Counted from the first letter of the stretch, positions 37,916 to 61,428 are shown. The stretch is 64,000 nucleotides of DNA from Patescibacteria group bacterium (GCA_943356485.1 CALRFD010000002.1:37032-101031); one strand, 5' to 3'. The notes: generated by a model not told the origin, from the sequence alone. Made by a program: numbers and translations.

Positions 37916-39061
37916 ATGTATTTAAAATTATTGTTAATAGGTATTTTTTTGGCTGTTTTATACAGTTTTTTAAGCTTACCTTTTGTACAAAAGAGTTTAA
38001 ACCTTACTTATAATCTCTCTAAAAAAGAAGTTCTAAAACTTAACTTCCCCTTACTACATACTTCTGATTTTCAAAGCTTTGCTATATCTAAGGAAACATC
38101 CAGAACCTCATACGGCCTCTACAAATTAACCCTTCTTCCAATTAACGGAGAATCTCCCATCATAACTGATAATGAAACAGCCGGGATGGGTGGAGCCCTG
38201 TATTTAGGTGATGTTTCTCCACAATCCTCACCTGATTTAAAAAAAGCGGCTTATATTTCAAAAGATAACCAGCTTAAAATAATAAGTGCAGACGGTAAAT
38301 CTGAAATTGAATTACCTGATAATTTATTAGTTTCTTATATTTCAGGTTGGTCACCTGATTCAAAAAAGCTGATTGTCTACTCCCAGGAAAGCAGTTACAT
38401 CGGTGGAGAAGGAGCAGCTACAACACCCACTCCTAGGCCTGCTACAAAATATTTACCTTCAGGGTTTTATTTATTGGATTTAGAAAAAGGCGAGGGAAAA
38501 TTATTAGCAGAGCTAAAAGGTGTGGATAAATGGATTAACAATGAGAAGGTTTTAACAGTAACATCTGGGGAAAAAGACCAATTTGCGATATTTAATATTA
38601 AAACAGGACATTTAGATACTTCTACCTTAAAAGGATTATTCGATCAATATTTTGGAGTTCAAACAAATTTCAACCATGATGGCAAACTTTGGGCTTTAAC
38701 TTTAGGCAATACAGGTAATGATCCTAGTAAACCCAGCTCATCTCTGATAGTCCTGGCGCAGTTTCCTAAAATTGAAGGAATTACAATTGATTCAGGTAGA
38801 TGGGCTGATGTTCAGATGCCAAAACTATCACCTAATGCAGACAACTTAATTTATATAAGAGCCGAACGTAACAGTGGGGAAGATGAGCAGGATGCAATTT
38901 ATTTAAATCAAAACTCTATTAACACTAGACTTACCAAAGGATACCCTCTAATGTGGACTGATAACAATAATTTTATTTACTCATACAATCCTAACTACCC
39001 GCAATTGCAGCAATACTATATTTTTGATATAAGTACAAAATCCTCAAGACGGTTAATTTAA
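37916..39061 (+). CDS. Secreted or anchored hypothetical protein, possibly with a beta-propeller fold
   Basis: N-terminal TM segment, then a Ser/Gly/Asp-rich body with repeated blade-like segments. The call is weak. Confidence 0.45.
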   Translation: MYLKLLLIGIFLAVLYSFLSLPFVQKSLNLTYNLSKKEVLKLNFPLLHTSDFQSFAISKETSRTSYGLYKLTLLPINGESPIITDNETAGMGGALYLGDVSPQSSPDLKKAAYISKDNQLKIISADGKSEIELPDNLLVSYISGWSPDSKKLIVYSQESSYIGGEGAATTPTPRPATKYLPSGFYLLDLEKGEGKLLAELKGVDKWINNEKVLTVTSGEKDQFAIFNIKTGHLDTSTLKGLFDQYFGVQTNFNHDGKLWALTLGNTGNDPSKPSSSLIVLAQFPKIEGITIDSGRWADVQMPKLSPNADNLIYIRAERNSGEDEQDAIYLNQNSINTRLTKGYPLMWTDNNNFIYSYNPNYPQLQQYYIFDISTKSSRRLI

Positions 39062-39984
39062 TTATCAAATTTGTTACCTGAATGAAAAGCCTTATGCACA
39101 TCTTTTAAATGCGCATTTGTAACATGGGTATATATTTGGGTAGTTGAGATATTGGTGTGTCCTAACATTTCCTGAACAGATCTGATATCAGCCCCATTTA
39201 TCAGTAAATCCGTGGCAAAATTATGCCTTAGCGTGTGTGGGGTAGCTTTAATTGCAAAACCCAACTGTTTAACATACTTTTCTACAATCCTTTCTATAGA
39301 ACGGGTAGTAAGCCTCATAGCCTCACCGTTATCTTCCATCTCAATTTTTCCCTGAAACCTGATAAATAAAGGTTTAAAGCTGTCTTTCCTAAAACTTAAA
39401 TATTTCAGGATCCAACTTGCAGCAGAATCAGAGATAAAAACCACCCGCTCTTTCCCTCCTTTACCCACAACCCCAAATTCTTTCCTATTTAAATTTATTG
39501 TATCCCGGTTAAGGGATGCTAGCTCCGAAACACGAAGCCCGGTTGAAAAAAGAGTTTCTAAAATTGATCTGTCTCTTATTCCATCTTTAGTTGTAATATC
39601 AGGCGCCTCCAAAAGCTGTTTTAAACGGGTATCGTCTAAGACTTTAAGCGGTCTTGGATCTGACTCTCCCAATTCAACCTTTTCGCTAGAGAGAGAAATT
39701 ACGTCTATCTTTGCCAGATACTTTAAAAATGATCGAAGGGCTATCATGAAATAATTTTGAGTAATTCTTTTTAAACTTTTCTGACTATTTGGATCTACCC
39801 AACGGGAAAGGTGCAGTCTATATTTTCTAATCAGGTTTAAATCAATCTTATCAGGACTGATGTCTCCGGAAAAAGATAAAAAGCGCTTTAGATAATGATC
39901 ATAGTTTTTGATAGTAAGCTTTGAAACATTCCGTTCAATCTCTAAATATTCTAAAAAGTCGGTAATCAGAGCAGAAAGAATCAT
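39058..39984 (-). CDS. Tyrosine site-specific recombinase, XerC/XerD family
   Basis: C-terminal catalytic box HTLRHNFATDLLINGADIRSVQEMLGHTNISTTQIYTHV containing the catalytic RHRH and Y residues. 308 aa. Confidence 0.85.
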   Translation of the reverse strand: MILSALITDFLEYLEIERNVSKLTIKNYDHYLKRFLSFSGDISPDKIDLNLIRKYRLHLSRWVDPNSQKSLKRITQNYFMIALRSFLKYLAKIDVISLSSEKVELGESDPRPLKVLDDTRLKQLLEAPDITTKDGIRDRSILETLFSTGLRVSELASLNRDTINLNRKEFGVVGKGGKERVVFISDSAASWILKYLSFRKDSFKPLFIRFQGKIEMEDNGEAMRLTTRSIERIVEKYVKQLGFAIKATPHTLRHNFATDLLINGADIRSVQEMLGHTNISTTQIYTHVTNAHLKDVHKAFHSGNKFDN

Positions 39985-39987
39985 AAA

Positions 39988-40734
39988 TTAGAGCAAGGTC
40001 AGACCCAATATTCCAAGAATAGTTAAAACTAAACCTATAATTGCAAACATGTAGGTAACTTTTTCGAAACCAGCCGGAGGAAGAGTTTTTAAAGGGATAA
40101 AAGTCGCTGAAGGGGTTGCAGCTCCAACAGCCCCTGCTGGTGGATTTATTGCTCCTACTGGCGTAACCTGAGTTGGAGCAGGAGTAGCGCCACAAGAACC
40201 AGCTCCAATGGTATAGCTGCCGTTCAAAACAGAATCCAGGGTTTCAGTAGCTGTTCCTTTTTGCACTACGTTTGAATCGGAAGTTTTGCCTTTGTCGTTC
40301 GGGTCAAAATCAAATGTCATTTGGGTTACACCAGTTGAGGCAGTATCTTTAACGCTAAAGTTTATTGTGGCGAGTTTTCCGGAACCGGAATAGGGTGAAG
40401 TTGGTGTAGCAAGCCCGGAAACTTTTATTATACCTAAATCATTTCTTATCTCGCTTCCTGGATAATCTGGATAGACCTTTCCCTGGGTATCAATACTTAC
40501 AGCATTAAACCTCGATGAATCAAAATTCAAATAGGCATCTGTTCCGTCCGTTGCAACTCCTTTAGTGTCTAAAAGAATATCTATTACAAAAGGACAGTTC
40601 CTATTAAAAGTACCTGTTGCAGGCGACAATGACAGAGTAGAAGCTAAAGCGGAAGAGGCTCCTAAAAATACAAAGAGTGATATGGAAAATATAGATAATA
40701 TTTGAGATTTGAGATTTGAGATTTGAGATTTCAT
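39988..40734 (-). CDS. Secreted cohesin-like domain protein with a C-terminal hydrophobic anchor. A heptanucleotide SSR begins at its start codon
   Basis: Signal peptide, then a domain homologous to the neighbouring 205-aa protein (IKVSGL...GKLATINFSVKDTASTGVTQMTFDF resembles LRVSGIVG...GNFGTINFKAKLSGITDVSLDF). The C-terminus YMFAIIGLVLTILGILGLTLL is hydrophobic. Confidence 0.55.
   Translation of the reverse strand: MKSQISNLKSQILSIFSISLFVFLGASSALASTLSLSPATGTFNRNCPFVIDILLDTKGVATDGTDAYLNFDSSRFNAVSIDTQGKVYPDYPGSEIRNDLGIIKVSGLATPTSPYSGSGKLATINFSVKDTASTGVTQMTFDFDPNDKGKTSDSNVVQKGTATETLDSVLNGSYTIGAGSCGATPAPTQVTPVGAINPPAGAVGAATPSATFIPLKTLPPAGFEKVTYMFAIIGLVLTILGILGLTLL
40701..40728 (-). repeat. Heptanucleotide simple-sequence repeat (AAATCTC/TCTCAAA)x4 immediately 3' of the ATG of the 39988-40734 gene
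   Basis: The plus strand reads tttgaga x4 followed by tttCAT. The coding strand reads ATG AAA TCT CAA ATC TCA AAT CTC AAA TCT CAA ATA. Confidence 0.9.
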
Positions 40735-41348
40735 TGTATATTTATCTTCACTCCTGAAACTTTCTCCAGTATATCTTTGCTGTTTCCAACCTCAACCATA
40801 TTTGTGTCATTTGTTAAGCCCGGGCTAAAATCTAACGACACATCAGTAATACCGCTTAGTTTCGCTTTAAAATTAATAGTACCAAAATTACCATTGCCAA
40901 TAAACCCCGGTTTACTAATCCCAACAATACCCGATACTCGTAAAACTCCTTTATCAGAATTAATATTTAGGGCAGGATAATCATCATAGACATCACCCTT
41001 TATAAAACCTGACGCAGAGGCTTCAAGTTTAGTTGGATCATACTTAATTACCAAATCCACTCCCTGGGTAGGATGCCCTCCGGTTGAAATCCTAACAGTT
41101 ACAGGCACTAAATCTCCAACATGGTAAATTTTATTTGCGCTCCCAAGCATGATCTCTCCTGCTGAAGAAGTAGTCTGTTGAGCTTGTTTTGAAGTGCTAA
41201 CCGGGGTCAAGAGAGTTTTTAAGCCAATTATTAATTCGACTAAAATAACTAGAGCTAATATAACAAAAATTATCCGCAAAATTGGCAACCCTTTTTTAGG
41301 ATTATTTTGAAAATCTTGCGCATGGTATGTGAGTGTTTGATTATCCAT
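40731..41348 (-). CDS. Membrane-anchored cohesin-like domain protein, 205 aa
   Basis: N-terminal TM segment plus a domain paralogous to the downstream gene. 4-nt overlap with its neighbour. Confidence 0.55.
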   Translation of the reverse strand: MDNQTLTYHAQDFQNNPKKGLPILRIIFVILALVILVELIIGLKTLLTPVSTSKQAQQTTSSAGEIMLGSANKIYHVGDLVPVTVRISTGGHPTQGVDLVIKYDPTKLEASASGFIKGDVYDDYPALNINSDKGVLRVSGIVGISKPGFIGNGNFGTINFKAKLSGITDVSLDFSPGLTNDTNMVEVGNSKDILEKVSGVKINIQ

Positions 41349-41350
41349 AT

Positions 41351-43579
41351 TTAAGGCTCCACTTGATTACTATTATTAAACTCAGGCAACATACAAGACC
41401 ACTCAAAGGAGTTACAAACTCCATCCCGGTTAACGTCACAATTCTTTCCTGCGTTTACCGGTCCCCATTGTGAACGCAGTAAACTACCATCTACATTATT
41501 TATAGTACCATCTCCATTATAGTCTCCGATAGGGAGATTTATACTTAAGTTATTGGTACCTGAAGAAGCTATAAACGGGGCTGAACACTTCCTTAAGCTA
41601 AGCGGCGCTTTAATACAGGCAATATAGTTCTCACCACTTTTTAGTTTAGTTTTAATATTAGTTATATTCCCGTCTCTGTCGATCGTGACCTTTTCTCTGG
41701 ATTTTTGAGTATGATCCTTGTCTAAAACTAAAGTCAGATCCACATTATCCTGATCAAAATTTCTTTGCGCCCTGCAAAATAATTTTGCCCCAAAAGATAG
41801 CTGTGTTATGCCAACTAAGCATTGCTGCTCCAGAGATTTTTGACCATCCTTAGTAGTTAAAGTAGCAAAATATTGTGTACCTATTGTGGTTGCAGATACC
41901 GGAGGAGAACTTAAACGAGCAGTCACTGCATTATTAGACCAATTTTCCGGAACAGGATTACCGCCACCATTTCTAAGTGTAACTGTTCCGGCAGTTGAAC
42001 CAAAATTATTCCCAATAAATTTAAATAATAAATCAGATGAGTTAGTCAAATCTATCTCACAGGCAAAACCGGAAACCACCGGTATCGGCCCAACTAAATC
42101 TATCTGGAATGGATAAGGATTTCCGTTTATTGTTTGTCCTTTATCATCAACAAATTGCACATAAATAAATTTTGTACCTATAGTCTGATTTACAAAGGTA
42201 ATATCCTGCCTAACCCCACCTTTCTGATAAGCAATTTCATGCCTGGCGTTTGGATTAGTTAAATCAGAAGCATTTTCTGCGTACCAAACTTTTATTATAT
42301 TTTGAGTTGTAGACTGAGTTGGAGTAGGGGTAGGAGTTACAACGCCTTGAGTAAAATTTACATCATAGGTTGATAAAATCCTGGTATTATTTTTATCAAA
42401 AACTGCAAAAGTGTGCAAGCCAGCCGGAACATTTACTGACTGGGTTGAAGACCAGCTAACTGAACCATTACCAGTCCCATTTCCAATAAGAGTCCATCCT
42501 TCACTTAGATTACATGAACTGGGCGTACAGGTTCCAGAACTATAGTAAAAAACATTCCAGTCAGTACCGGAATCTGCCCTGACAGTTAAAGTCAAATTTG
42601 GCCATAGGTTATTAACCTTAATTGCCGGATTTGGTGAAACAGACAAGGATACAGCCGGAGCTGCAACAGGAGGAGTAGGAGTAGGGGTTACCACACCTCC
42701 TCCAACACTGCAGGTTGCACAGGTACCATTACTGCACCAGCCCTTATTACATTCATCACAGGATCCAGCTCCACCGCTACCACAGGCAGATCCACAGACC
42801 TTGCCTATAGAACAGGTTGCACTGCCTCCATTATTTGGAGTTGGTGCAGGAGTAGAGCTGGCGGCAGGACGTGAGCCTATATACTCAAGCTGCATACATC
42901 TGGGAAGGAGCGTCTGACCTTCTGACACAAACCCACCATAACACCAGTTACTGGTTACAGGATTAACAAAGGGATCAGTACTAACAGGACAATCGCTGTT
43001 AGTTTTACAAAAATGGCTACAATCAGCATGCCAGAGATAATTAGCAGGTGGAGTCTCCGGATTATCCCGACAAGTATCTGGAGGTGAGACATGAGAACCG
43101 GTATATTGAAGCTGCATACATCTGTTTCCAGAATCAAACTCATAACACCAATTACTGGAGATTGGATTAACATTATTTGGATCCGTACTATTGGCCGGAC
43201 AATCGCCGTGAGTATTGCAGGTTTTGCTACAATCCGCTTTCCAAATATAACTCGCATTTGGCAAAGGAGCATCAGGAGGATTATCAGAACAATCCGTTGC
43301 ATAGGCTGTTTTAACCAAACCCTGAACTAAAATACCGGTTTCTGTAGGGGAAACAAAGTTTAGGGTCACTGTTGGACAAGTCAAAACTTTTTTACCATTT
43401 TGATCTATTGTACAGTTATTATTTATCAGTTGAACGCTGTCTGTCGCTGCTTTAGAAAATAAAATCTGCTGTCTTCTGGCTAAATTTATGGTTAAAGGAA
43501 TAGCCAAGACTAAAATAGCCAGGATTAGAAGATTTATTGTGTTTTTTTTACTAAAAAGCTCTTTAAGATAATCCTGCAT
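41351..43579 (-). CDS. Large Cys-rich secreted protein, paralog A (742 aa), with a dockerin-like C-terminus
   Basis: Signal anchor, then KAATDSVQLINNNCTIDQNGKKVLTC...VKTAYA, duplicated WCYEF...RCMQLQY / WCYGG...RCMQLEY modules, and a C-terminal DYNGDGTINNVDGSLL ... DVNRDGVCNSFEW that looks like a Ca-binding dockerin repeat. Confidence 0.6.
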   Translation of the reverse strand: MQDYLKELFSKKNTINLLILAILVLAIPLTINLARRQQILFSKAATDSVQLINNNCTIDQNGKKVLTCPTVTLNFVSPTETGILVQGLVKTAYATDCSDNPPDAPLPNASYIWKADCSKTCNTHGDCPANSTDPNNVNPISSNWCYEFDSGNRCMQLQYTGSHVSPPDTCRDNPETPPANYLWHADCSHFCKTNSDCPVSTDPFVNPVTSNWCYGGFVSEGQTLLPRCMQLEYIGSRPAASSTPAPTPNNGGSATCSIGKVCGSACGSGGAGSCDECNKGWCSNGTCATCSVGGGVVTPTPTPPVAAPAVSLSVSPNPAIKVNNLWPNLTLTVRADSGTDWNVFYYSSGTCTPSSCNLSEGWTLIGNGTGNGSVSWSSTQSVNVPAGLHTFAVFDKNNTRILSTYDVNFTQGVVTPTPTPTQSTTQNIIKVWYAENASDLTNPNARHEIAYQKGGVRQDITFVNQTIGTKFIYVQFVDDKGQTINGNPYPFQIDLVGPIPVVSGFACEIDLTNSSDLLFKFIGNNFGSTAGTVTLRNGGGNPVPENWSNNAVTARLSSPPVSATTIGTQYFATLTTKDGQKSLEQQCLVGITQLSFGAKLFCRAQRNFDQDNVDLTLVLDKDHTQKSREKVTIDRDGNITNIKTKLKSGENYIACIKAPLSLRKCSAPFIASSGTNNLSINLPIGDYNGDGTINNVDGSLLRSQWGPVNAGKNCDVNRDGVCNSFEWSCMLPEFNNSNQVEP

Positions 43580-43688
43580 ACAAGATGTATCGCCTAATAT
43601 TTTGAGGTGATATATTTACATTGACACTTTTTAAGGCTATTTGTCAATCACGTTTATATAAACCGAACACGATCAACTACATTAAGTC

Positions 43689-45524
43689 TCAAAAACTACA
43701 TGCATCTTTAAATAAATCCTTTATGTCTGAAGCAAAGCTAGCCAGCCTGTCACAACTAAAGTTAGATAAAAAAGCTGTTCGATTTCCGGTTGCATCTGCC
43801 ATATCCAAAAGATCCTGGTTACTAAAAGATCCTAGTCTAGAAGAGGGAAGTGTGGCCAATCTGCTTTTAGGAAACAGGTTCAAAAGATCACCGTTGCTAA
43901 ACGAGATGATCGCTTCATTAGGCAACATATCGCGGAGATTAGAGGGCAAACCCAACAATACCTGATTACTGCAATTTGGCCAGGTCGAGATATCAACTGA
44001 GACATTACAACTGGGAGGAACTGGAGTAGGAGCGGGGGGCGCTGCAGTTGGCCCAGGGGTAACAACAGGAGGGGTCGAACCTGCATTTTGTTGAACAGTT
44101 ATATTTGTAGCACATTTATTGTCTACCGCCCCTCCTACATTCCCGTCCAACAAATCCCCATTAGCTGCATGTAAGGTTATGAATAATGCATGAGAACCAC
44201 CAACCATATCTGAGGGGATAACAAATGGAATACTGGCAGAAGGCGAAGTATTCTCCTTAACTTGAGTCCAGGATGAAACAGATGGAGCAGATTTACCTAT
44301 TTCGCTATTTGATGCCATCCAAACTTTTATCGACCCCGGAGTACCGGTGTAACTGATAGAAATTGAAGCACTATCACCAGGTCTTCCGTTATTTCCTGAA
44401 TACAAACTGACACTGCCGCATTTAACAGCCTGAGCAGTTGTATTTGTTGAACCAGCTCCGGCAGAAGACAATGGGGCAGCAGAAGCAACCGGTGCTGAAG
44501 CAACCAGATCTATTTGAGCAGGATATGGAATAGCTTGGATTTCATTACCTAAGTTATCTTTAAATAGCACAAATAAATATCTTGGACTGGGAGCAGCAGG
44601 CGCATCACTAAAATTAAAATCGCTAACAGTTACACCGCCCTGGGTATAATCCAGCCAGTCTGCTCTTTGCAAAGCTGTCGGGTTTTCTCCATATTTATAT
44701 TTAACAGTCACTCTTAGTGCTGCTGTTGGTGTTGGAGTAGGGGTAGGTGTTGGAGTAGGCGTAGAAGTTGGTGCTGCTGTTGGTGTTGGAGTAGGGGTAG
44801 GTGTTGGAGTAGGCGTAGGGGAAGCAGTCAGGGTTGATACTCTTAAAGGAGTTCCTGCAGGAGCAGAGGTTGGATTTGCACCAGCGCCATTTGATCCTCT
44901 TGGAAGTGTTGGTTGCGGGTCTAAATTTCTTATTGGAGTATTTGTAGACCCTCCTTGCCCTTCTAAAATAGGTGGCGGTTGAAAACTACCTGTAGCTTGT
45001 GGCGATACTTCATTTGAAACTACACATTTGGCTCCGCTATCAAACACTCCTTGACTGATAGCCTCACACTTTTGTCCGCTATCACATTTCTCGCTGGCTT
45101 CTACTAAATGATTGTTCCACCAGGGGAATATACAAAGATTTAAAGGCAAGTCACATATTTTACGATAAATCTTCTCCGGATCATCAGCAGGATTACAATA
45201 GTAATTTGCACCAGAACCAGCAGCATAGGCTGTTTTTACTATACTGAAATCTACTCCTTTATCTGAAACAGCAGTTGTATCCAAGGGTGAGACAAGCCGG
45301 AACGAAATCCCCTTAGTACAGCTTAAAACCTGCTTATTATCTTGTACCTTTACGCAGCTGCCATTTAAAAACTGTATATTAGTCGATGTTGCCTTTGGCT
45401 TAAAAATTTGGGTTTTACCAACCAGGAAAACTCCGGCGATAATACCTACCAGAAGAATTATAATCAAGGCCAGATGTGCAACACCTCTCTGGCTTTTAGA
45501 TTTAAAGAAGAACCTTGTTAACAT
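43689..45524 (-). CDS. Large secreted protein, paralog B (611 aa), with a Pro-Thr linker and degenerate dockerin-like C-terminal repeats
   Basis: N-terminus KPKATSTNIQFLNGSCVKVQDNKQVLSC...VKTAYA, the conserved block RYLFVLFKDNLGNEIQAIPYPAQIDLV, a (PT)n linker, and C-terminal SNGDLLNLF / SNQDLLDMADATGNRTAF. Confidence 0.6.
   Translation of the reverse strand: MLTRFFFKSKSQRGVAHLALIIILLVGIIAGVFLVGKTQIFKPKATSTNIQFLNGSCVKVQDNKQVLSCTKGISFRLVSPLDTTAVSDKGVDFSIVKTAYAAGSGANYYCNPADDPEKIYRKICDLPLNLCIFPWWNNHLVEASEKCDSGQKCEAISQGVFDSGAKCVVSNEVSPQATGSFQPPPILEGQGGSTNTPIRNLDPQPTLPRGSNGAGANPTSAPAGTPLRVSTLTASPTPTPTPTPTPTPTAAPTSTPTPTPTPTPTPTAALRVTVKYKYGENPTALQRADWLDYTQGGVTVSDFNFSDAPAAPSPRYLFVLFKDNLGNEIQAIPYPAQIDLVASAPVASAAPLSSAGAGSTNTTAQAVKCGSVSLYSGNNGRPGDSASISISYTGTPGSIKVWMASNSEIGKSAPSVSSWTQVKENTSPSASIPFVIPSDMVGGSHALFITLHAANGDLLDGNVGGAVDNKCATNITVQQNAGSTPPVVTPGPTAAPPAPTPVPPSCNVSVDISTWPNCSNQVLLGLPSNLRDMLPNEAIISFSNGDLLNLFPKSRLATLPSSRLGSFSNQDLLDMADATGNRTAFLSNFSCDRLASFASDIKDLFKDACSF
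44721..44818 (-). repeat. Tandem 44-bp exact direct repeat with 54-bp period, encoding the (PT)n linker
   Basis: tgctgttggtgttggagtaggggtaggtgttggagtaggcgtag occurs at 44721-44764 and again at 44775-44818. Confidence 0.9.
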
Positions 45525-45526
45525 TA

Positions 45527-48046
45527 TTACTGACTAGCCCCATCAGCATCTGCCGGATTACAGGCTGTACATGAATAATTATAATCACTGGCATTAGCTC
45601 CACTTATACATAAACTGTTTCTGGAATATGAACATTTAAATTTAGTAGCTGTTCCTTTACAGAGTTGATCCCCGGTTTGCGCTGCATCATCAATACAGTT
45701 ATCGTAAGTAGTAATTCCACAGGTATTTTTGGTACCAGCCTCACCCGGCTTGGCACAAGGAACCCTATTTTGTGCAGCAGCTATGTTGTTTGGACAGGAT
45801 GAACAAAAATAGTTGTATGTCGTATCGTTTGCGCTGCTTCTGCAGGAATCGTTTTTAGAAAAGTAACATCTGAATTTTGCAGTAGCATCGCTACAAAAAC
45901 TCGCCATATCATTTGTGGCTCCATTTTGATCAATACATTTATCATATGTTTTTACACCACATATTGTTCTAAGCTCCTCCGGCGTAACTGTATCTGTTGG
46001 ACAAGCCGGGCGGGAAGCACCTGATTGAGGGGCGGCAGTCGGAATCGCAGAAGAAAGCACCAGTTCTATTTGAATAGGGTAGGGGTTGGCATTAGTTATA
46101 TTTCCCTGATTATCCTGAAATTGGGCATAAATAAATTTCGTTCCAGGCCTTGCATCATTAAATACATAAGGAGCTACTATGTCACGGTAGTATCGTTGAA
46201 ATGGAACCGCAACAACCGTTACGTTATCCAGCGGTCTTTCTGAGAATCTAAACCCTGTTGTAACTCTAGCACCTGCAGGGGGAGTAGGGGTAGGACTAGC
46301 TGCATTACCCGCAGGAGAAGCTGAAGCTGCTGGCGCAGCGGAGGAAGCAGGGAGTTGTCCTCCAGGTGTACCTGGTGTTGGTGTAGGAGTAGACGTTGTA
46401 CTATTTCTCATTAACATCAAACATCTTGGTCTGGAAAAATTAGAACCAAAACCATAACACCAGTTGGTTTTATTGATAGCTCCATCCGGATTTTGCGGAG
46501 TTCGCTCATACATACCAGGGTCACCGGCAATGCTTGGATCTGTACTTACCGGACAGTCAGAATTCGTGCTACAGACTAAAGTACAATTTGGCTGCCATCT
46601 GCCTCCCTCCGGCGTGTTTCCTCTTCCTGGAGCCGGGGCTCTAAAGCTTAAACAATCAGCCGGAGCGCTACCATCATCAGCAACTACTGCCGGTGCTCTG
46701 CCACCCTGAGTACCGCCAGGAGGAGTCGTTCCTCCGGAAGGGGCAGAGGGAGCAGGAGTTGCAATAGCTGCTCCAGGATTAGCCCCGCCAGTCTGCTGTC
46801 CTGTAGGATTACCACCACCTGTCGTAAGAGGTTGACCTGTTTGACAGTTATATTCATGCACACCTTTGGAACCATCATATGTGCAGACCTTGTTTCTCCA
46901 GCTGCCTAAATAACATCTGGACCCAGGCTCACTATACAAACAGTCACCACCCTCAGGTTTATTTGCATCTTCTGCAGGAGCAGCTGGGGCTGCTTTATTA
47001 ACAGTAAAGCTAAAAGTTTCGCTTGTGCCTCCTTGAAGAATAAACCTATCTTTATCTAATGCTGTAACCCACCATCGATACGTTTTCCCTTCATCAAAAT
47101 CAGATAAATTTAAAGCATAGTAATTTGAATCTCCAGTATTATGCAAAATATTATTTCCTCCAACTCCATTATTAATAACTAAGTTGTAACTACTGGCACT
47201 CCCTACCTTTGACCAGTAAAAATGGATTTTCCTATCAGCATCATTCTGGGCTACACCATTTGGGAAAAGTAAAATCGGAGTATTACTTCCCTGTGGTGAA
47301 GCCGGAACTGGAGTTGATACTGGTGCGGGAGTTGATGCCGGTATTGATGGACTCATCTGTCCCGGAACACCACAGAAGAATCTACTTCCATCACTTCTGC
47401 ATTCTTTTCCAGCAGGACATTGTATTGATGGATCTTGAAGCCAGGGTACACTTTTATATATATTGTCTTTCGTTCCTCGACCAATAAGGCTACCACCTAG
47501 CCAGGAACCAGGCGCTGCCGCCCCGCAATACCAGTCACTTCCATCTATCACTGGTCCTCCGTCTGAATCTGCACAAAAAGCTCCATTATGACGATTAGCT
47601 GCAAAAAGAGCTATCCTACAAGTATAGCCACTGTCACAGGTAACTGTTGGCGAACCTGTATCGGGATCATAAATCTTTGAAGGGTCAGCACCGCAATAAC
47701 CACCAGTTTGAAATCCTGTAGCATAAGCAGTTTTAACTATTTGAAACCCGGCGTCAGTAGTTTGACCTGCATCCAGCGGAGAAATAAATTTCAGATTAAC
47801 AACTCCACAGGTTAAGACTTTTCTGCCATCCCGACTAGACAAACACTGTCCTGACTCAAAAGAAACATTTTCAGCAGTAGCTTTTGGTTTAAAAATTTGA
47901 AAACCATTTTTTGAAACCAGGTAAACACTCGCAATAATTCCTACCAGTAATATAAATAGGGGAACAAGGTGCAATACACCCGCTTCGCCCAAGCGATAGC
48001 GAGGCAAGCCTTTTTGATTCAAGCTAACTTTTTTAATTAAGGGCAT
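45527..48046 (-). CDS. Large Cys-rich secreted protein, paralog C (about 840 aa), with two C-terminal ~57-aa Cys-rich tandem modules
   Basis: The start is most likely the internal Met (MPLIKKVSLNQ...) at 48046. The ORF track extends to 48133, but that extension carries no paralogous sequence. N-terminus KPKATAENVSFESGQCLSSRDGRKVLTC...VKTAYA, the block KFIYAQFQDNQGNITNANPYPIQIELV, and CG[VI].TYD.CID...ATKF.C.[FY]S.N..C repeated twice at the C-terminus. Confidence 0.6.
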   Translation of the reverse strand: MPLIKKVSLNQKGLPRYRLGEAGVLHLVPLFILLVGIIASVYLVSKNGFQIFKPKATAENVSFESGQCLSSRDGRKVLTCGVVNLKFISPLDAGQTTDAGFQIVKTAYATGFQTGGYCGADPSKIYDPDTGSPTVTCDSGYTCRIALFAANRHNGAFCADSDGGPVIDGSDWYCGAAAPGSWLGGSLIGRGTKDNIYKSVPWLQDPSIQCPAGKECRSDGSRFFCGVPGQMSPSIPASTPAPVSTPVPASPQGSNTPILLFPNGVAQNDADRKIHFYWSKVGSASSYNLVINNGVGGNNILHNTGDSNYYALNLSDFDEGKTYRWWVTALDKDRFILQGGTSETFSFTVNKAAPAAPAEDANKPEGGDCLYSEPGSRCYLGSWRNKVCTYDGSKGVHEYNCQTGQPLTTGGGNPTGQQTGGANPGAAIATPAPSAPSGGTTPPGGTQGGRAPAVVADDGSAPADCLSFRAPAPGRGNTPEGGRWQPNCTLVCSTNSDCPVSTDPSIAGDPGMYERTPQNPDGAINKTNWCYGFGSNFSRPRCLMLMRNSTTSTPTPTPGTPGGQLPASSAAPAASASPAGNAASPTPTPPAGARVTTGFRFSERPLDNVTVVAVPFQRYYRDIVAPYVFNDARPGTKFIYAQFQDNQGNITNANPYPIQIELVLSSAIPTAAPQSGASRPACPTDTVTPEELRTICGVKTYDKCIDQNGATNDMASFCSDATAKFRCYFSKNDSCRSSANDTTYNYFCSSCPNNIAAAQNRVPCAKPGEAGTKNTCGITTYDNCIDDAAQTGDQLCKGTATKFKCSYSRNSLCISGANASDYNYSCTACNPADADGASQ

Positions 48047-49074
48047 GTGATTTAACTGAAACATAAAAGTAATCCGGTTGTCAAGTAAGAACGTGATTAT
48101 ATTGTGCGACAAGAGATTAGCAAGCCAGTACAAAAATACTCCTTAGAATCGCTGAATCAAAAGATTTAATGCAGGATCTAAAATAATATATTCAAACAAA
48201 AAAAACATAAATTATTTGTAACCGAAGAAAATAAAGACTTTTAATATATAAACGAACTGACTGTCTGAGTTTTATCTAGATAAATTATCTCTCCAGAATA
48301 ACGCTATCTACCATCTAAGCCTACTCAGGCACGAAGCCCTTAAACGCCCTAAAAACGGCTGATCAAGGGGATAGATGCCCAATTAGCTATCTTTAGTTTA
48401 GGGCTTTAGGATAACCCAAAGTCAAAGTTGATATATTTACGGAAATAGGAAATTTTAATCAAAAAATATTGATAGGAAAGGTAAAGAAATACGCATTATT
48501 AAATAAACTATAAATATTTATAGTTACACCAATAATTTATGTATATTCAAGATATGCGGTCTCCTCCGGCAAAACCCATTTCTGACGTCGCATAAGATAC
48601 ATTGTACGACATGATAATATAGGGAGGTTCTCTAGTAAAGAGTAATTGAGGCTATTTTAGACAAGAAATCAAGTAAATACAAGAAATAGATAAGTCGCTA
48701 CGCTCATAATATAGAGCCTAATTATGCGCACTTCTCCTTATATAGCTATGTTTCGGGTTTTTATACTAGCAATTACAGTCAGCAGGCGCCAGATTTAGCT
48801 TGATGAAGGAATCTAATCTGAGGGTATTAAGAGTAGCGGTGCTTGATGCTTTCAGCACAGAGTGGTATAGCTATTTCATAGCGGATAAAGAAGACAAGAG
48901 AACGAATAAGTCCCATAGTTTTCCACATTCATGCCTAACGACTATATCAAACTATATCATTTATTCTTTTCACGATTTTCTTTTTATTCTTTTCACAGCT
49001 ACCTATAGTATTCTAGTTGCCCCCTCTTCCCCACCTAACCCTTAAAAAATAATTTACCTTTAGATGTATCTAAT

Positions 49075-50757: not shown

Positions 50758-51498
50758 ATGGATGATTTATCCCCAAACCTTCTTATTTTACACCAACAGG
50801 CAATTGATGCGGCTCTAAGTTCAAATTGGGAAGATGCTTTAAAAATAAATAAACAAATAATAAAAGTTGATCCTCAAAATGTAGATGCTCTAAACCGTCA
50901 GGCCAGAGCTTATATGGAGATAGGAAAAGGAAACTTGGCAAAAAAGTTCTACAGTGAGGTTTTAAAATACGATCCATATAACCCTATTGCTATTAAGAAT
51001 CTGAAGATAATAAAATCCTTTAAACCTAATGGTATACCTAATACCCACATACCTTCTCAAAATAGCTATTCAAGATTGTCTGCATCCTTATTTTTACAGG
51101 AACCTGGCAAAACTAAGATAGTAGCACTTCTTAAAGTTGCCGAGCCTCAAAAGCTATCCCAGGCTTTTTGCGGTATGCAGGTTATGATGGCAGTTAAAAA
51201 CAGAAAAATCACTATTGTTGATCTATCCGGCAATTATTTGGGCGTTTTACCTGATGATACCAGTCACCTTATATTAAGGCTGACAAACGGTGGAAATAAA
51301 TACGAGTTTTTTATAAAATCCATTAAGGTAAACGGCTTATCTATTTTGATTAAAGAGGTATACCGCAGTAAAAAGTTTAAAAACCAACCGTCGTTTTTGG
51401 ATAATTCTGATTCTATTATCACTTCTGAAATATTGCCTTCGCTTGATCAATCTGATGACAATGATGAAGATGGCTTAGAGGAAGAACCCGAGGTTTAA
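50758..51498 (+). CDS. TPR-repeat protein
   Basis: The N-terminal ~90 aa contain TPR-like helices (WEDALKINKQIIKVDPQNVDALNRQARAYMEIGKGNLAKKFYSEVLKYDPYN). The remainder is unknown. Confidence 0.5.
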   Translation: MDDLSPNLLILHQQAIDAALSSNWEDALKINKQIIKVDPQNVDALNRQARAYMEIGKGNLAKKFYSEVLKYDPYNPIAIKNLKIIKSFKPNGIPNTHIPSQNSYSRLSASLFLQEPGKTKIVALLKVAEPQKLSQAFCGMQVMMAVKNRKITIVDLSGNYLGVLPDDTSHLILRLTNGGNKYEFFIKSIKVNGLSILIKEVYRSKKFKNQPSFLDNSDSIITSEILPSLDQSDDNDEDGLEEEPEV

Positions 51499-52161
51499 AA
51501 CTTCTTCGACTTTTAACTTCACTTCCCTACCATTTTCTTTTATCAGGCTTCTTGTTTTATAAAACTCAAATAACTGACTTTTAGAAAAAGGTTTCGGTAG
51601 TTTTGGCAATAAGTTTTCAAAGTTTTTTTGCGTGTTTTCTGTCAATTCCTTTAATCTATCTGCATCCTGTGAGAGAAGAATGAATCTTAACTGAGCTGGT
51701 ATCAAATGCAGATCCTTACCCTTCAACTTAAGAATTATTTGAAACCAAAATTGCTCGTTTTCCAGTAATTTAGGTAGCTTCTCTTTAAAATCCTGAACGT
51801 TTTTAATCGCAACCTCCCAAATGGCAATATTATTTATATCAACATCCGTATAATCCTCAAGCTCCAATAACCCCAAATCTTCTTTGTACGGAAGAAGTAT
51901 CTTTTTAGGGCCATATATTACCCAGGCTTTTTTATCACCTTTAAAAAGTCTTTCCAGGCTTATCAAAAGATCTCTCTCTGCTGCTTTTGCAAAAATAGCT
52001 GATAAAGCATTAACCTTTAAACCATTATCACTTCTGACTAAAAATAAAGCATATTCAAAATCAGGATTTGGCTTGGTATGGAAATCCTTCATCGAATAAA
52101 AGGCTAGGAGAAAAGAAGCTAGAACAACCAGAACAAACAGGATTATTAGTATAAAAATCAT
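51475..52161 (-). CDS. Membrane-anchored hypothetical protein, co-oriented immediately downstream of the LCP gene
   Basis: N-terminal TM segment. Its start lies 2 nt from the LCP stop. Confidence 0.45.
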   Translation of the reverse strand: MIFILIILFVLVVLASFLLAFYSMKDFHTKPNPDFEYALFLVRSDNGLKVNALSAIFAKAAERDLLISLERLFKGDKKAWVIYGPKKILLPYKEDLGLLELEDYTDVDINNIAIWEVAIKNVQDFKEKLPKLLENEQFWFQIILKLKGKDLHLIPAQLRFILLSQDADRLKELTENTQKNFENLLPKLPKPFSKSQLFEFYKTRSLIKENGREVKLKVEEVLNLGFFL

Positions 52162-52162
52162 A

Positions 52163-53194
52163 TTAATTTACTAAATCAGGAGCTAATTTTATATTTATTT
52201 GACCCCTGGATGATGAAAAGTCTTCATCACTTTTTTGAATTTTATCACAGTCACTCTCTTTACAGCTTGAGTTAAAGACTTCTGACAACCTAGCCCGAGT
52301 AAGACTGGCTTCACCAACAACTAATGTTTTATCAATTTGCTTTTGGGCATTTGTTGTAAAAATAACACTTCCACCGATATTTGCAACTAATCTTGCCCAG
52401 TCTTGCGCAAACAAGGCCTTATCTGTTCCATTAAAAATTACCACCGTTTTATGCTCATTTTTGATTTTCGGATCTATAAAATCAACTAGAGCCAAATCCA
52501 ATTTATTCGGATCAGCCACAAGCACCTCAGTCCCATCTAAAAGACGATCATTTGTCAGGCTATCTTCAAGGTTAACCTCTGAAACTTTATCAAACCTGAC
52601 AGAAGATAGTCCTAATTTTAATCTTAATAATTCTATTATGGTTAGATTTGTTTTTAAATTAGATAAAAGGCTTATCGGTATCAGATTACCTCTAATTGAA
52701 GTTACTATTCCCAATGCTGTCTTTTTTTTCATCTCACCTGAAAAATCTAACACTCCATCTATGGGTTGAGCAAAAAATCTAACCAGAGTATCTCTTAATA
52801 ATTTATCTCCACCTAAATTTTTTTGATTCTCTCCCAAATCATAAAGCGAACTTAGTAACCAGCTACCAAAACCGCCTGCAGACTCTAAATATATCCTGTC
52901 TGGAATATTAATAATTGTGATTTTTTTATCTGTCGGGTTATATGAGACTAATGCCAGATTTTTCGAACGTATGAGAAAATTTATATTAAGCTTACCATCC
53001 CAGGTGTAGTTTCTCTGGATATTTGAGATCTTCCAGGAAGAAAACAAAGTCCTGGTAAACCTAAAGGCCTGCGAAAAAACTAGCACCAAAACTATGAGTC
53101 CTAAAATTAAAAAAGCCAGTTTTGTTTTTTCTTGAACTCTTTTTTTTGACTGGACAACTTTCCAGCCACTCTTTTTGGACAGTTTCGAGGGCAT
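52163..53194 (-). CDS. LytR-CpsA-Psr (LCP) family cell-wall glycopolymer transferase
   Basis: TM anchor followed by LALVSYNPTDKKITIINIPDRIYLESAGGFGSWLLSSLYDLGENQ...QPIDGVLDF, the LCP core pattern. Start chosen at the internal Met (MPSKLSKK...) because the longer ORF running to 53401 would cross the promoter and SD of the divergent gene at 53296. Confidence 0.7.
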   Translation of the reverse strand: MPSKLSKKSGWKVVQSKKRVQEKTKLAFLILGLIVLVLVFSQAFRFTRTLFSSWKISNIQRNYTWDGKLNINFLIRSKNLALVSYNPTDKKITIINIPDRIYLESAGGFGSWLLSSLYDLGENQKNLGGDKLLRDTLVRFFAQPIDGVLDFSGEMKKKTALGIVTSIRGNLIPISLLSNLKTNLTIIELLRLKLGLSSVRFDKVSEVNLEDSLTNDRLLDGTEVLVADPNKLDLALVDFIDPKIKNEHKTVVIFNGTDKALFAQDWARLVANIGGSVIFTTNAQKQIDKTLVVGEASLTRARLSEVFNSSCKESDCDKIQKSDEDFSSSRGQINIKLAPDLVN

Positions 53195-53295
53195 ATACTT
53201 ATAGTACAAAAAAGCCCTTGACCGCGCAACTAGAATAACTATACACTGTAGGCAAGATCCTCCTATGCTTAAAGCTTCGGAGGACAAAGAAGGAG

Positions 53296-53595
53296 GTGAT
53301 ATTAATAATGGACAATAATCAAAATCCAACAGATCCAGCAAATAGTGGTATGGGCGGCGGAATGCCGACAGGAGATCAGCCGATGACTCCTCCATCCTCA
53401 AACCCTATGGATCAACCTATGCCTTCTGCACCAGCAGACCAGGGACAACCAGCTCCAATGGGCAGCGGAATGCCGACTGATCCTATGGGAACACCAGCTC
53501 CAACCGCTCCTAGCGAGCCTGTAGTTGAAACACCAATGGGTGGTAGCGAGGAACCAGGTAGTGAAAACCCAACTGGGGGCGCACCTGCAATGTAG
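53296..53595 (+). CDS. Small (99 aa) low-complexity protein rich in Met, Pro and Gly
   Basis: Strong SD aaggaggtgat lies 6-8 nt upstream, with a TTGACC-N16-TATACA promoter-like element at about 53216-53243. The protein has 11 Met and many GMP/PMxxP repeats. Confidence 0.5.
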   Translation: MILIMDNNQNPTDPANSGMGGGMPTGDQPMTPPSSNPMDQPMPSAPADQGQPAPMGSGMPTDPMGTPAPTAPSEPVVETPMGGSEEPGSENPTGGAPAM

Positions 53596-55004: not shown

Positions 55005-55877
55005 TTAGTTTATCAGCGGAGTAAATGATTTACCTTGATTATCAGAAACTTCTATACTGAGCGGCAAATAATGAGAAAAGAAAGGAGCTACCCTTAGTGA
55101 ACCTCCCCCACTAACTCTATAGAGTAACGGGTGCTCGATCGGCCATCTGATAATTTGTCCTGTGTATCCCTGATCAGTTTTTTGGGCATAAAACTTCACC
55201 TGTGAAGTATCACTTTCATACATTTTTTCATTTTCGAAATTAGCAGAGGGGTCAAGATGAGAGTAACAAATTGTTCCTTCTGATTGTAGATTAGACCAGT
55301 CTCCTCTGGTAATAGCCCGGTAAAGATACTGATCTTGACCAAGCCCTGTAGCAGTATTTCCTCTAGCTAACTCTTCAACAACTTTTTCATCTTTTAGAAT
55401 ATGTACAAAGAAGCCATTTAATAGTTCTTTTCTTCTGTGCGTAAGATCAAACCCTGTATAATGCCCACCAAATACATCCACCCCTTCTATCTCTGTTTTT
55501 ATATCAAAATCAACTGGACTTATCCCATTATAACCTGTCCTAGAACGAGTATACTTCCCATTATTTATAATTGATATTACCATTCCACTATTATCAGCTT
55601 CTAATGAAGGACTCTCCGGAATATCTACGGTTAAATTGGGTATGGTGAAAGCAACACCTGCAAAAACCTCAGGAAGATTAATATAGATTCGGACAGGAAT
55701 TAATTGGGAGGTTAGTTTAACCCGCTCCTTTGCTATCATTTCCATTAATTCATCAACCTGACTTGGGCTTCCTGCAAAATCCGGGCTTGCCCCAATTTGT
55801 CTGGTTAATCTTTCTGCTTCACTTAGCGAATCAAGTCGGGAGAAAATATCTGGTATTTCTGCAGAATTGGGCATCAT
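55005..55877 (-). CDS. Hypothetical protein, 290 aa
   Basis: ORF only. No recognisable motif. Confidence 0.45.
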   Translation of the reverse strand: MMPNSAEIPDIFSRLDSLSEAERLTRQIGASPDFAGSPSQVDELMEMIAKERVKLTSQLIPVRIYINLPEVFAGVAFTIPNLTVDIPESPSLEADNSGMVISIINNGKYTRSRTGYNGISPVDFDIKTEIEGVDVFGGHYTGFDLTHRRKELLNGFFVHILKDEKVVEELARGNTATGLGQDQYLYRAITRGDWSNLQSEGTICYSHLDPSANFENEKMYESDTSQVKFYAQKTDQGYTGQIIRWPIEHPLLYRVSGGGSLRVAPFFSHYLPLSIEVSDNQGKSFTPLIN

Positions 55878-56951: not shown

Positions 56952-57863
56952 CTAATTTAACCCTCTGGAGAGAAGATCTTCTATCATCTTGTTATGATCA
57001 AAGGCTAACCTTGGTAATTTACCGGGGTTCATAAGATGAACTTGTTTTGCATCATCGCCGGCCTTTAAATCGCCGTGATCTATTTTGGCGTAATAACATG
57101 CCGAAATAGTCGAACCTCTGGGATCTCTTTGAGGAGCGGAATAGACACCTAAAAGATGTAGTTTTTGCGGATTAATCTCTAAGCCAGTTTCTTCCTTTGC
57201 CTCTCTGGCTGCTGCTTGCTCTAAAGTCTCAAACCCTACATTTAAATATCCACCGGGCAAGGCCAGGAAGTTAGCAAACGGTTCATTTCCCCTTGTAATC
57301 AAAACAATACCCATATCTTGATATTGAATTATTAAATCAGCGGTGTTATTTGCCCGGGGATGTTTTAAATATTCGAATCTTAAGCGTTCACTGCCGCGGA
57401 CTTGCTCTAAAATTTGCAAAGTTGTGGGCGGAACAAACTCCTGCCAATTCTCACCTCTAATCATACGTTGACGGATTAATGTGGCAGATATTGGCTGGGT
57501 CGTTTCTGGAGCAATCACATTATATCCGCTTTGTTCAAACATCTTTTTAACAATCGGGTTACCTGAATATACTAAATTAAATTTTGGGCATAAGACTTCA
57601 ACGTATTGTACCCAGCTTGGATCATGAATGTCAGGAATAGGAATAATATGTGTTGGTTTCATTCCAACTGTAGCCTGCATAAGCATCAATTTTCTGGTCT
57701 CGTAATCAAAAGGATTATCCAAAAATTTAAAATTACCATATTGCGATGAACCCACCCCAATCACGATCTCATCTACATCAGGATTTCGATTAATTTGCTC
57801 AATTACCGACTGGTGTCCGTTATGATGTGGTTGAAATCTGCCGACGTAAAGTGCTCGTTCCAT
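56952..57863 (-). CDS. nadM: Bifunctional NMN adenylyltransferase (archaeal-type) / Nudix ADP-ribose pyrophosphatase, NadM-Nudix
   Basis: N-terminal ALYVGRFQPHHNGH is the archaeal NMNAT GRFQPFHKGH motif. The C-terminus carries the Nudix box REAKEETGLE. Start taken at the internal Met (MERALY...) so that the gene abuts the nadE stop. Confidence 0.8.
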   Translation of the reverse strand: MERALYVGRFQPHHNGHQSVIEQINRNPDVDEIVIGVGSSQYGNFKFLDNPFDYETRKLMLMQATVGMKPTHIIPIPDIHDPSWVQYVEVLCPKFNLVYSGNPIVKKMFEQSGYNVIAPETTQPISATLIRQRMIRGENWQEFVPPTTLQILEQVRGSERLRFEYLKHPRANNTADLIIQYQDMGIVLITRGNEPFANFLALPGGYLNVGFETLEQAAAREAKEETGLEINPQKLHLLGVYSAPQRDPRGSTISACYYAKIDHGDLKAGDDAKQVHLMNPGKLPRLAFDHNKMIEDLLSRGLN

Positions 57864-57864
57864 T

Positions 57865-60740: not shown

Positions 60741-60801
60741 TTATTCTTCCTTTCTTTTTTAGTTTTTGGGGAGTTATTCAAGGCTACTCCCCTAAGCCTT
60801 T

Positions 60802-61428
60802 TTAAGATTGAGCCATTAACTCTAATGCTCTTTCTAAACTAATCACCTTAACACCACTATCTTTCATCTCTTCTAAAGCTCTATTTCCATCTCCAGGATT
60901 AATATCCACTGCTCTTACAGCTTCTTCTATTAAAAAAACCTGATAGCCAAGCTTAACTCCATCCATCGCCGTTTGTTTAACACAATAATCGGTTGCCAAA
61001 CCTCCAACAAATAATCTTTGTATACCTCTTGCTAAAAATACGTCATTTAGCGGAGTACCTAAATCTGCCTTGTCAGGACTAGAAGTGATGCTGCCATCAA
61101 ATCCCGAATAAGCATCTTTACCATCTACCCCTTTTGATACAATAAAAGTTGCTGGATCTATTTTAAGATCAGGATGGAACTTTGCACCTTCTGACTCCAT
61201 AATGCAATGTTCCGGCCAAACTCCTCCAAATCCAGCAAAGTGCACCGCTTGTATAGGATGCCAATCTCTTGTTGCAACTTTCAACACTCCGGTCAAATCT
61301 GCTGCTTTAAATAATTGATTTATTGGGTCAGCAACTAAGTTACCTTCCTTAACTGGCAACTTTCCACCGGGACAAAAATCATTTTGTACATCGACCGCTA
61401 TTACTGCTGATGGTTTTCTTTCAATCAT
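60802..61428 (-). CDS. pncA: Nicotinamidase (isochorismatase-fold cysteine hydrolase)
   Basis: AVIAVDVQNDFCPGG (Asp), Lys, and ATDYCVKQTA (Cys) form the catalytic triad pattern. Strong SD aaaggaggtgagg upstream. Confidence 0.85.
   Translation of the reverse strand: MIERKPSAVIAVDVQNDFCPGGKLPVKEGNLVADPINQLFKAADLTGVLKVATRDWHPIQAVHFAGFGGVWPEHCIMESEGAKFHPDLKIDPATFIVSKGVDGKDAYSGFDGSITSSPDKADLGTPLNDVFLARGIQRLFVGGLATDYCVKQTAMDGVKLGYQVFLIEEAVRAVDINPGDGNRALEEMKDSGVKVISLERALELMAQS

Follow-up and report, generated by a model that had tools for sequence, protein, structure and literature searches.

Within a 64,000-nucleotide stretch of DNA from a Patescibacteria group bacterium (GCA_943356485.1, CALRFD010000002.1:37032-101031; hereafter the window, from whose first letter all coordinates are counted), six co-oriented open reading frames (ORFs) on the minus strand, spanning 39058-48133, encode three large Cys-rich surface proteins (large1, large2, and large3), two small cohesin proteins (cohA and cohB), and a tyrosine recombinase (xer). 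We consider it probable that this operon-like cluster is a conserved, minimal, and noncellulosomal cohesin-dockerin surface-display system of the Patescibacteria, or candidate phyla radiation (CPR). Neighboring genes of the cluster lie 2 to 110 nt apart or overlap, with the stop codon of cohA overlapping the start codon of cohB (ATGA) and 3 nt between the end of cohB and the start of xer, and the GC content rises from ∼36% outside to 43 to 46% within the large genes. The same gene set had been listed in an earlier reading made from the sequence alone (the sequence-only reading), which also took the organism to be a reduced one. We recovered all of these ORFs, with a single start codon in doubt, and the organism is a reduced CPR bacterium. 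The DNA of the window is also present in three assemblies, one of groundwater type from ENA, one from Logan, and a metagenome-assembled genome from NCBI with a 252-kb contig.

Both small proteins, described as cohesin-like in the sequence-only reading, contain a genuine match to the Pfam Cohesin family (PF00963; gathering score, 24.1 bits), with 39.0 bits for cohA and 30.3 bits for cohB. Scores among the orthologs ranged from 21 to 44 bits, with 9 of 10 over the cutoff, and those of the cohB orthologs from 21 to 37 bits. The two proteins are paralogs (31% identity; E = 9e-19), each with one cohesin and, by Pfam, neither with a carbohydrate-binding module (CBM). An AlphaFold2 (AF2) model of cohA, built with 19 homologs, reached a predicted local distance difference test score (pLDDT) of ∼95 at residues 62 to 205 and shows a transmembrane (TM) helix at residues 21 to 47, a linker of ∼15 residues, and the cohesin β-sandwich from 62 to 205. 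Searching the PDB with this model in Foldseek gave a top 50 made up entirely of type I or type II cohesins, the best match having an E value of 5e-9, a TM score of 0.79 to 0.80, and a root mean square deviation of ∼2.4 Å. Included are single-cohesin anchoring proteins (3ul4 and 4dh2) and noncellulosomal cohesins (2xdh and 2vo8), and many of the matched structures were solved together with dockerins. According to the model, cohA is a type II membrane protein, and since its linker has just ∼15 residues, the cohesin should be located at the membrane surface. cohB instead begins with a predicted cleavable signal peptide of the A-x-A type (…ALA↓STLSLSP) and continues after its cohesin into a P/T/G/A-rich stalk of ∼45 residues and an LP-x-[AG]-G motif, after which a hydrophobic helix forms the very end of the chain. 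Signal peptide and LPx[AG]G-TM end are kept in 10 loci, and this end, which is similar to a sortase sorting signal, could either direct sorting to the wall or simply anchor the C terminus in the membrane.

The matching module is found at the C terminus of large3. A type I dockerin is recognized as a duplicated segment of ∼22 residues, each made up of a helix and, ahead of it, an EF-hand-like Ca loop of the form D-x-[DN]-x-[DN]-G-x-x-x-x-x-[DE], and large3 scores 28.3 bits with the Pfam model Dockerin_1 (PF00404; gathering score, 22.9 bits). Its two Ca loops are DYNGDGTINNVD, followed by GSLLRSQW, and DVNRDGVCNSFE, followed by WSCML. When a profile was made from seven orthologous large3 C termini, solved dockerins were matched across both repeats (E = 6e-7), an alignment in which neither the Ca loops nor the placing of the helices departs from the canonical pattern. 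The dockerin is invariant in 12 large3 orthologs and is the best-conserved segment of the protein, with Dockerin_1 scores of 33.5 (L009), 29.2 (L014), and 24.6 (L013) bits in three orthologs and scores below the cutoff in two others (L010, 17.7 bits; L011, 14.7 bits). In its second repeat, large3 shares with its orthologs three invariant cysteines (KNCDVNRDG.CN.FEWSCML; residues 712 to 729, ∼41393-41446) that are unusual for a type I dockerin and may form a disulfide stabilizing the module.

The sequence-only reading had given dockerin ends to two of the large proteins, and the claim stands for large3 but not for large2. The C terminus of large2 (SNGDLLNLF) had no Pfam match and only a 2% probability in hhalign against the dockerin profile, and a PDB profile search returned nonsignificant matches to Leu-rich repeat proteins; the segment instead forms a domain resembling Leu-rich repeats (SFSN.DLL), bracketed by Cys residues and kept in four of five orthologs. 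Neither Pfam nor a regular-expression scan placed a dockerin in large1 (868 or 845 aa, depending on the start codon), and across all ORFs of the 64 kb, the scan found dockerin-type loops in large3 alone. For cohA, cohB, and large3, the cohesin-dockerin assignment of the sequence-only reading is thus backed by significant profile or structural matches.

The family is small, with 22 matches for large3 and 19 for cohA in a search among 5.8 billion proteins. On the contigs long enough to judge, the gene order is TPR, YebC, (RuvC), DUF5656, an ORF-free gap of 0.7 to 2 kb, (a second Xer-like gene), the large protein or proteins, cohA, cohB, xer, a holin-like gene, (AP endonuclease), amidase, and GyrA. 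The invariant core consists of one dockerin protein, cohA, cohB, and xer and is found on more than 15 Patescibacteria contigs. In all relatives, the gene directly upstream of cohA encodes a dockerin, some of these being below threshold, with PF00404 flagged in the gene tables. The number of paralogs varies, large1 and large2 being confined to a closer clade. Identity to the window across relatives is 67 to 83% for xer, 70 to 95% for GyrA, and 43 to 87% for DUF5656, compared to 36 to 66% for cohA, 40 to 68% for cohB, and 28 to 72% for large3, and large1 and large2 are recognizable in blocks only. These values therefore describe a fast-evolving surface-protein island amid slow housekeeping genes, with xer in the slow class.

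In the display system that we propose, CohA, with its cohesin kept near the membrane by the N-terminal TM helix, would offer an inner docking level, and the Sec-secreted CohB, with a second cohesin on its P/T/G-rich stalk of ∼45 residues and the C-terminal LPxxG-plus-hydrophobic anchor, would offer an outer one. The dockerin of exported large3 would bind one or both cohesins in a Ca2+-dependent manner, and this binding would fix or orient the adhesin-like large3 on the cell surface. The paralogs large1 and large2, which have no dockerin but have the N-terminal anchor module and the internal β-sandwich in common with large3, would diversify by module shuffling, and they probably serve as additional surface or attachment proteins, with only the N-terminal TM helix to hold them. 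As a likely role, the system would bring an episymbiotic cell into contact with its host, a partner cell, or a surface.

Several observations weigh against this arrangement. The AF2 model of large3 has a pLDDT below 50 over the dockerin (residues 683 to 742). Two cohesins are found for one dockerin within 64 kb, and their true partners could be elsewhere in the genome. Since large3 has its own N-terminal TM helix, it might be retained without any cohesin, unless cleavage occurs at the conserved VKTAYA. As for cohB, its C terminus has no basic tail such as classical sortase signals carry (10 orthologs compared), an LPXTG hidden Markov model gave no match to the protein, and no sortase gene was found in the 64-kb window. 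Lastly, xer is packed against cohB in every genome, overlapping it or following at 3 to 80 nt, which fits a functional link too.

The surplus of cohesins in the window, the TM anchor of large3, and the three unusual conserved dockerin cysteines would also fit a case in which cohesin and dockerin folds are present without pairing with each other. The small proteins would then have dockerins encoded elsewhere as partners or serve as generic envelope proteins with a β-sandwich fold, and the large3 dockerin would serve in Ca binding or stabilization or would have another partner, for instance, a component of the host cell. We regard this explanation as rather unlikely, given that the adjacency of dockerin and cohesin genes is strict in more than 15 divergent genomes even though the rest of the large protein has been remodeled, that the dockerin is the best-conserved part of large3, and that its Ca loops and helix positions are canonical.

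The three large proteins are related to each other, as the sequence-only reading had stated from shared N-terminal and internal blocks. The N-terminal block (a TM helix, …KPKAT…C…VL.C…, and VKTAYA) is shared in BLASTP between large1 and large2 with an E value of 7e-18 and between large1 and large3 with an E value of 2e-9, the internal block FIY.QF.D..G....NPYP.QI.LV is shared among the large proteins with E values of 5e-9 to 2e-5, and a Cys-rich module is common to large1 and large3 (E = 1e-7). Cysteine makes up 4.3%, 2.3%, and 4.3% of the three proteins. In large1, the N-terminal TM helix and shared block are followed by Cys-rich modules, the internal β-sandwich block, and two C-terminal Cys-rich repeats. 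In large3, the N-terminal TM helix is followed by a small β-domain, two copies of the Cys-rich module, a Cys knot-like segment, three or four immunoglobulin (Ig)-like β-sandwiches, and the dockerin. A type IV prepilin-like processing of these N termini was considered and discarded, as there was no N_methyl match and no Glu at position +5. In the (PT)n linker of large2, the repeat is 54 bp (18 aa, in frame) longer in the window than in a near-identical assembly (L001), which could be either a real variable-number tandem repeat polymorphism or an assembly repeat collapse.

The AF2 model of large3 is confident for the small N-terminal β-domain and three β-sandwiches, and its matches in the PDB, none of them to a catalytic fold, are tandem Ig-like arrays of adhesins and surface fibers (GhpA, SiiE, Bap, S-layer, and SGBP-B). 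By Pfam, neither the large proteins nor their orthologs contain a catalytic domain or a CBM, and no glycoside hydrolase, lyase, or esterase was found. Across the 12 large3 orthologs, the C-terminal half, including the dockerin, is kept, while exchange, duplication, or replacement has affected the Cys-rich modules at the N terminus. On the basis of the model and these comparisons, the predicted architecture of large3 is that of a modular adhesin and not of an enzyme. A distant ortholog of 1,728 aa (L013, 4586-9772) has a TSP_1 domain (35.8 bits) and fn3 ahead of its dockerin, eukaryote-like adhesion modules in a CPR surface protein.

Cohesins together with type I dockerins are the hallmark of cellulosomes, and cohesin- and dockerin-domain proteins expressed in the metaproteome of a groundwater CPR Microgenomates bacterium (Candidatus Shapirobacterales, Olkiluoto) have been read as a cellulosome (bioRxiv 10.1101/2021.08.21.457207). 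A true (mini-)cellulosome for polysaccharide degradation nevertheless appears highly improbable here: no glycoside hydrolase, lyase, esterase, or CBM is encoded in the cluster proteins or their orthologs, a single cohesin per protein leaves no multicohesin scaffoldin, adhesin-like Ig arrays are the sole matches of the dockerin protein, and one dockerin in total was found in the 64 kb. In the Saccharibacterium Southlakia epibionticum, the dockerin-domain envelope protein SEML1_0315 is essential (PMC10633639). Both reports concern the same domain families and the same superphylum as our cluster, to which they can be likened by domain family, and the proteins, expressed in one case and essential in the other, were proposed to be at the cell envelope. 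They give domain annotations only ("cellulosome" and "glycan targeting"), with no cluster, anchoring topology, paralog family, or synteny, and our literature searches turned up no paper describing this cluster, the topology of its anchors, or its synteny.

The closest known parallels to the noncellulosomal display system that we favor are OlpA and OlpC of Clostridium thermocellum (3ul4 and 4dh2) and ScaE of Ruminococcus flavefaciens, small one-cohesin surface proteins that tether a dockerin protein to the cell, as cohA and cohB may do if the predicted pairing is correct; 3ul4_A and 4dh2 rank among the top structural matches of cohA. The LPxxG-type C-terminal anchor of cohB recalls the sortase-anchored ScaE. 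The anchors in our cluster differ, since in place of SLH domains cohA uses an N-terminal TM helix and cohB an LPx[AG]G-TM end that has no basic tail, and the cargo is neither an enzyme nor a scaffoldin, in a CPR bacterium without any sign of a cellulosome. The cohesin of Archaeoglobus fulgidus (2xdh) and those of Clostridium perfringens toxins and glycosidases (2vo8, 2jh2, and 2ozn), also among the structural matches, are precedents for extracellular assembly unrelated to cellulose. Those modules belong to enzymes or soluble multidomain proteins, whereas here a dockerin protein and two cohesins with different anchors form a dedicated, syntenic three-gene core with a Cys-rich, adhesin-like cargo.

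The last gene of the cluster was correctly recognized in the sequence-only reading as a XerC/D-type recombinase adjoining on the same strand. xer has matches in Pfam to Phage_integrase (142 bits) and to a SAM-like N-terminal domain, and its membership of the XerC/XerD family is clear from these profiles at the family level, with scores below the cutoff of all equivalog models (XerC, 237 versus 335 bits; XerD, 232 versus 330 bits; XerA_Arch, 215 versus 220 bits). The further proposal of that reading, that the recombinase makes the attachment locus variable by inverting, excising, or shuffling parts of the paralog cluster, was not borne out and seems very unlikely. Several features would suit it: the cluster invariably ends with xer, a second Xer-like gene is found at the other end in several relatives, paralog number and module content vary between genomes, and an Xer-type 28-bp site plus a half-site are located upstream (see below). 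However, no pair of inverted or direct repeats brackets the cluster or any of its genes in the window, where only short AT-rich chance pairs were found, and the same result was obtained for the two-recombinase relatives L003 and L009. The full site is single copy and present on one side only, and since both copies are upstream and in direct orientation, inversion or excision of the cluster by them is impossible. Two independent assemblies of the strain are collinear over 20.6 kb, with one mismatch and the 54-bp PT-linker difference. Because xer shows 67 to 83% identity, comparable to GyrA, and because its flanks are syntenic, no repeats bracket the cluster, and the assemblies are collinear, xer is most likely the conserved housekeeping Xer of the lineage, cotranscribed through genome compaction, and probably not a dedicated switch for the locus.

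Many relatives (L003, 4638-5669; L009, 2962-4029; L008, 2-856; L084; L037/L041; L056; L049; L018; and L025) have a second Xer-family recombinase (int2; 343 to 355 aa, ∼31% identical to xer) inserted ahead of the first large gene, on the near side of a conserved noncoding element. It is absent from the whole 64-kb window, and tblastn detected no remnant in the corresponding gap. In L003, a Y1 transposase (IS200-like) and an rve-type transposase (14780-17964) interrupt the conserved flank downstream of xer, and the neighborhood therefore accepts mobile DNA. The 3′ end of xer overlaps by 4 nt with a convergent plus-strand gene (37916-39061) for a 381-aa protein that has no Pfam match and no counterpart at the loci of relatives, where a holin-like gene or an amidase directly follows xer; it looks like a strain-specific insertion.

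The noncoding element is part of an ORF-free gap of 940 bp (48134-49074) that shows 71 to 86% DNA identity in relatives whose surface proteins are 30 to 70% identical. The gap is not coding, as the tblastx similarity contains stops in all six frames, and Rfam gave nothing for it at the gathering score or at an E value of ≤1. Block A of the element contains GATATAGT (twice), GTGAAAA (three times), and GTGAAAA/TGTGGAAAA motifs, and block C an invariant AGCCGTTTT…CTCGTGCCT. Copies are also present at L003 (3855-4457) and L005 (4173-4748), and a motif scan of JGI metagenomes with an nhmmer filter added ∼20 more (L018 to L092), always in an identical context. A structured RNA in block C was considered and set aside, since RNAalifold on 18 copies gave ∼−0.4 kcal/mol and one covarying hairpin, which is weak support, and the apparent hairpin of block B is better described as an 11-6-11 DNA palindrome.

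This palindrome (site 1), ATGTCGTACAA-TGTATC-TTATGCGACGT, bears on the possibility, raised in the sequence-only reading, that the recombinase is simply of the dimer resolution type with a dif site elsewhere. A position weight matrix built from 11 loci scored site 1 at 45.6 bits, compared to a maximum of 16.9 bits in shuffled windows, and found it once in the 64 kb, with no second full dif-like site in the window. Its center, AA-TGTAT.-TTATG, equals that of Escherichia coli dif. The candidate at 48585-48612 fits the architecture of a dif site and is unique in the 64 kb. The canonical core ATAA-N6-TTATG has no match in the window, and xer falls below the XerC and XerD cutoffs. GC skew, which in the window tracks gene orientation, is for that reason uninformative as a test for the terminus. 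The full palindrome is found in 11 of 11 loci without int2, and the left arm only in at least 6 loci with int2. The two states are interleaved on the DUF5656 tree with the palindrome basal, and the association between int2 and loss of the palindrome therefore arose repeatedly. A simple attL/attR integration model fails, as the lost right arm was not found elsewhere in the int2 loci.

Near-perfect palindromes are the dif architecture of single-recombinase systems, with proximity to xerA in the Sulfolobales (PMC2958812 and PMC3025954). Site 1 resembles the sites of such systems (archaeal XerA/dif, XerS/difSL, and XerH/difH) in being a near-perfect 11-6-11 palindrome that is unique, intergenic, and near xer and that has conserved flanks. 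As a candidate site, it departs from them in two respects: a half-site copy of its left arm is present in the probable promoter region of the cluster, and relatives that carry a second Xer-like gene have a degraded palindrome.

This half-site (site 2; CTTGTCGCACAATATAAT) is in the same orientation as site 1. The motif, GTCG.ACAATAT, starts in the window at 48110, 46 nt upstream of the ATG at 48064. In every locus with a callable long downstream ATG ORF, it precedes the first large gene by 46 to 180 nt, with TTGACA 15 to 25 nt after it in most loci. In the window, site 2 overlaps the best promoter-like match, TTGCTA-16-TATAAT (48123-48096). The motif may be a site of the Xer/dif type, may belong to an operator or promoter, or may combine these roles. 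The start codon of large1 in doubt is the TTG at 48133. Because the extension that it would add (48065-48133; 868 aa in total) holds the conserved noncoding site 2 motif and a TTGACA box, this start is probably wrong, and the ATG at 48064 chosen by the gene caller (845 aa) or the one at 48046 chosen in the sequence-only reading is more likely the true start.

cohB carries the slippage-prone simple-sequence repeat (SSR) noted in the sequence-only reading, a perfect 7-nt repeat of 4.6 copies at 40700-40731 that begins 1 nt past the ATG, encodes the n-region of the signal peptide, and is the sole perfect multicopy nontriplet tract in the 64 kb. Computed translations give full-length cohB with 4 or 7 units and an ORF ending after 21 to 45 codons with 3 or 5 units, and it is possible, to judge from the reading frame, that the tract provides ON/OFF phase variation of the outer cohesin. 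Simple-sequence contingency loci of this kind, with nontriplet repeats in phase-variable surface genes, are found in Haemophilus, Neisseria, Campylobacter, and Mycoplasma. cohB resembles them in having a perfect nontriplet repeat in its 5′ coding region, where one unit more or less causes a frameshift. It differs in that the tract has only 4.6 units, no copy number polymorphism was seen, and three of five close relatives have no repeat. The copy number is identical in the window and in L001, and a scan of JGI metagenomes with the junction sequence gave no match and hence no copy number variants. A contig of a k=31 assembly (L002) breaks off within the tract, a suggestive but weak sign, and at this position (GTCAAAT)×3 is found in the sister lineage L007.

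A broader picture can be drawn from these parts, although as a whole we think it improbable and offer it tentatively. The cluster would be a lineage-wide, fast-evolving CPR attachment organelle in which display of the dockerin adhesin on CohB is phase variable through the heptanucleotide tract, located between the chromosomal Xer gene and a dif-type site that is a near-perfect palindrome where one Xer acts alone and that lost its right arm whenever a second Xer was inserted next to it. If true, this would be the first Xer/dif system described in the Patescibacteria, and a hypervariable surface-protein locus would be tied to the dimer resolution (terminus) region, with the arm motif reused in the promoter of the cluster.

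Table 1. Features of the cohesin-dockerin cluster and its upstream region
Feature	Coordinates	Strand	Description
large1	45527..48064	-	845 aa from ATG 48064; alternative ATG 48046; TTG 48133 unlikely
large2	43689..45524	-	611 aa; N-terminal TM helix, shared blocks, PT linker, C-terminal Cys-bracketed Leu-rich repeat-like domain
(PT)n linker repeat of large2	44724..44819		18-nt/6-nt in-frame tandem repeat
large3	41351..43579	-	742 aa; dockerin bearing
Type I dockerin module of large3	41390..41527	-	Residues ∼685 to 730; Pfam, profile search, orthologs
cohA	40731..41348	-	205 aa; Pfam Cohesin, AF2 model, Foldseek
cohB	39988..40734	-	248 aa; Pfam Cohesin; termini conserved in orthologs
Heptanucleotide SSR in cohB	40700..40731	-	(AATCTCA)×4.6, 100% perfect
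xer	39058..39984	-	308 aa; XerC/XerD-family tyrosine recombinase
Conserved ORF-free element	48318..48997	-	∼700 nt; between DUF5656 and the cluster
Site 1, dif-like palindrome (candidate)	48585..48612	-	11-6-11; two inverted 11-nt arms, 6-nt spacer
Site 2, left-arm-only copy	48096..48113	-	Same orientation as site 1; probable promoter region

The surroundings of the cluster, syntenic among relatives, belong to a window that elsewhere encodes a type IV pilus cluster, Mur ligases, GyrA/B, NAD salvage genes, and few other functions. The type IV pilus cluster (7807-21104) looks complete, with PilM, N_methyl pilins, prepilin peptidase, PilC, two PilB/PilT-type ATPases, and several proteins without a Pfam match; it is the other known CPR apparatus for attachment or uptake and is located ∼20 kb from the cohesin cluster. 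The NAD salvage group (56952-62246, minus strand) comprises an NMN adenylyltransferase-NUDIX fusion, NAD synthase, NAPRTase, an isochorismatase/nicotinamidase-like protein, and an NrtR-type regulator, and such clustering is consistent with a scavenging lifestyle. Long ORFs of up to 635 aa without a Pfam match (E ≤ 1e-3) are found at 258-5057, 8922-10781, 51475-53401, and 55005-55877.

CPR bacteria are thought to live attached to host cells, and to our knowledge almost nothing is known of this attachment beyond type IV pili. The locus described here is a concrete and testable candidate for such an attachment system, with a three-gene core conserved across the clade and fast evolution in the exposed parts. 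It would also correct what is likely a habit of misannotation, in which cohesin and dockerin found together in CPR genomes are called a cellulosome. The palindrome upstream of the cluster tracks the number of Xer genes and, if confirmed, would be the chromosome dimer resolution site of the lineage.

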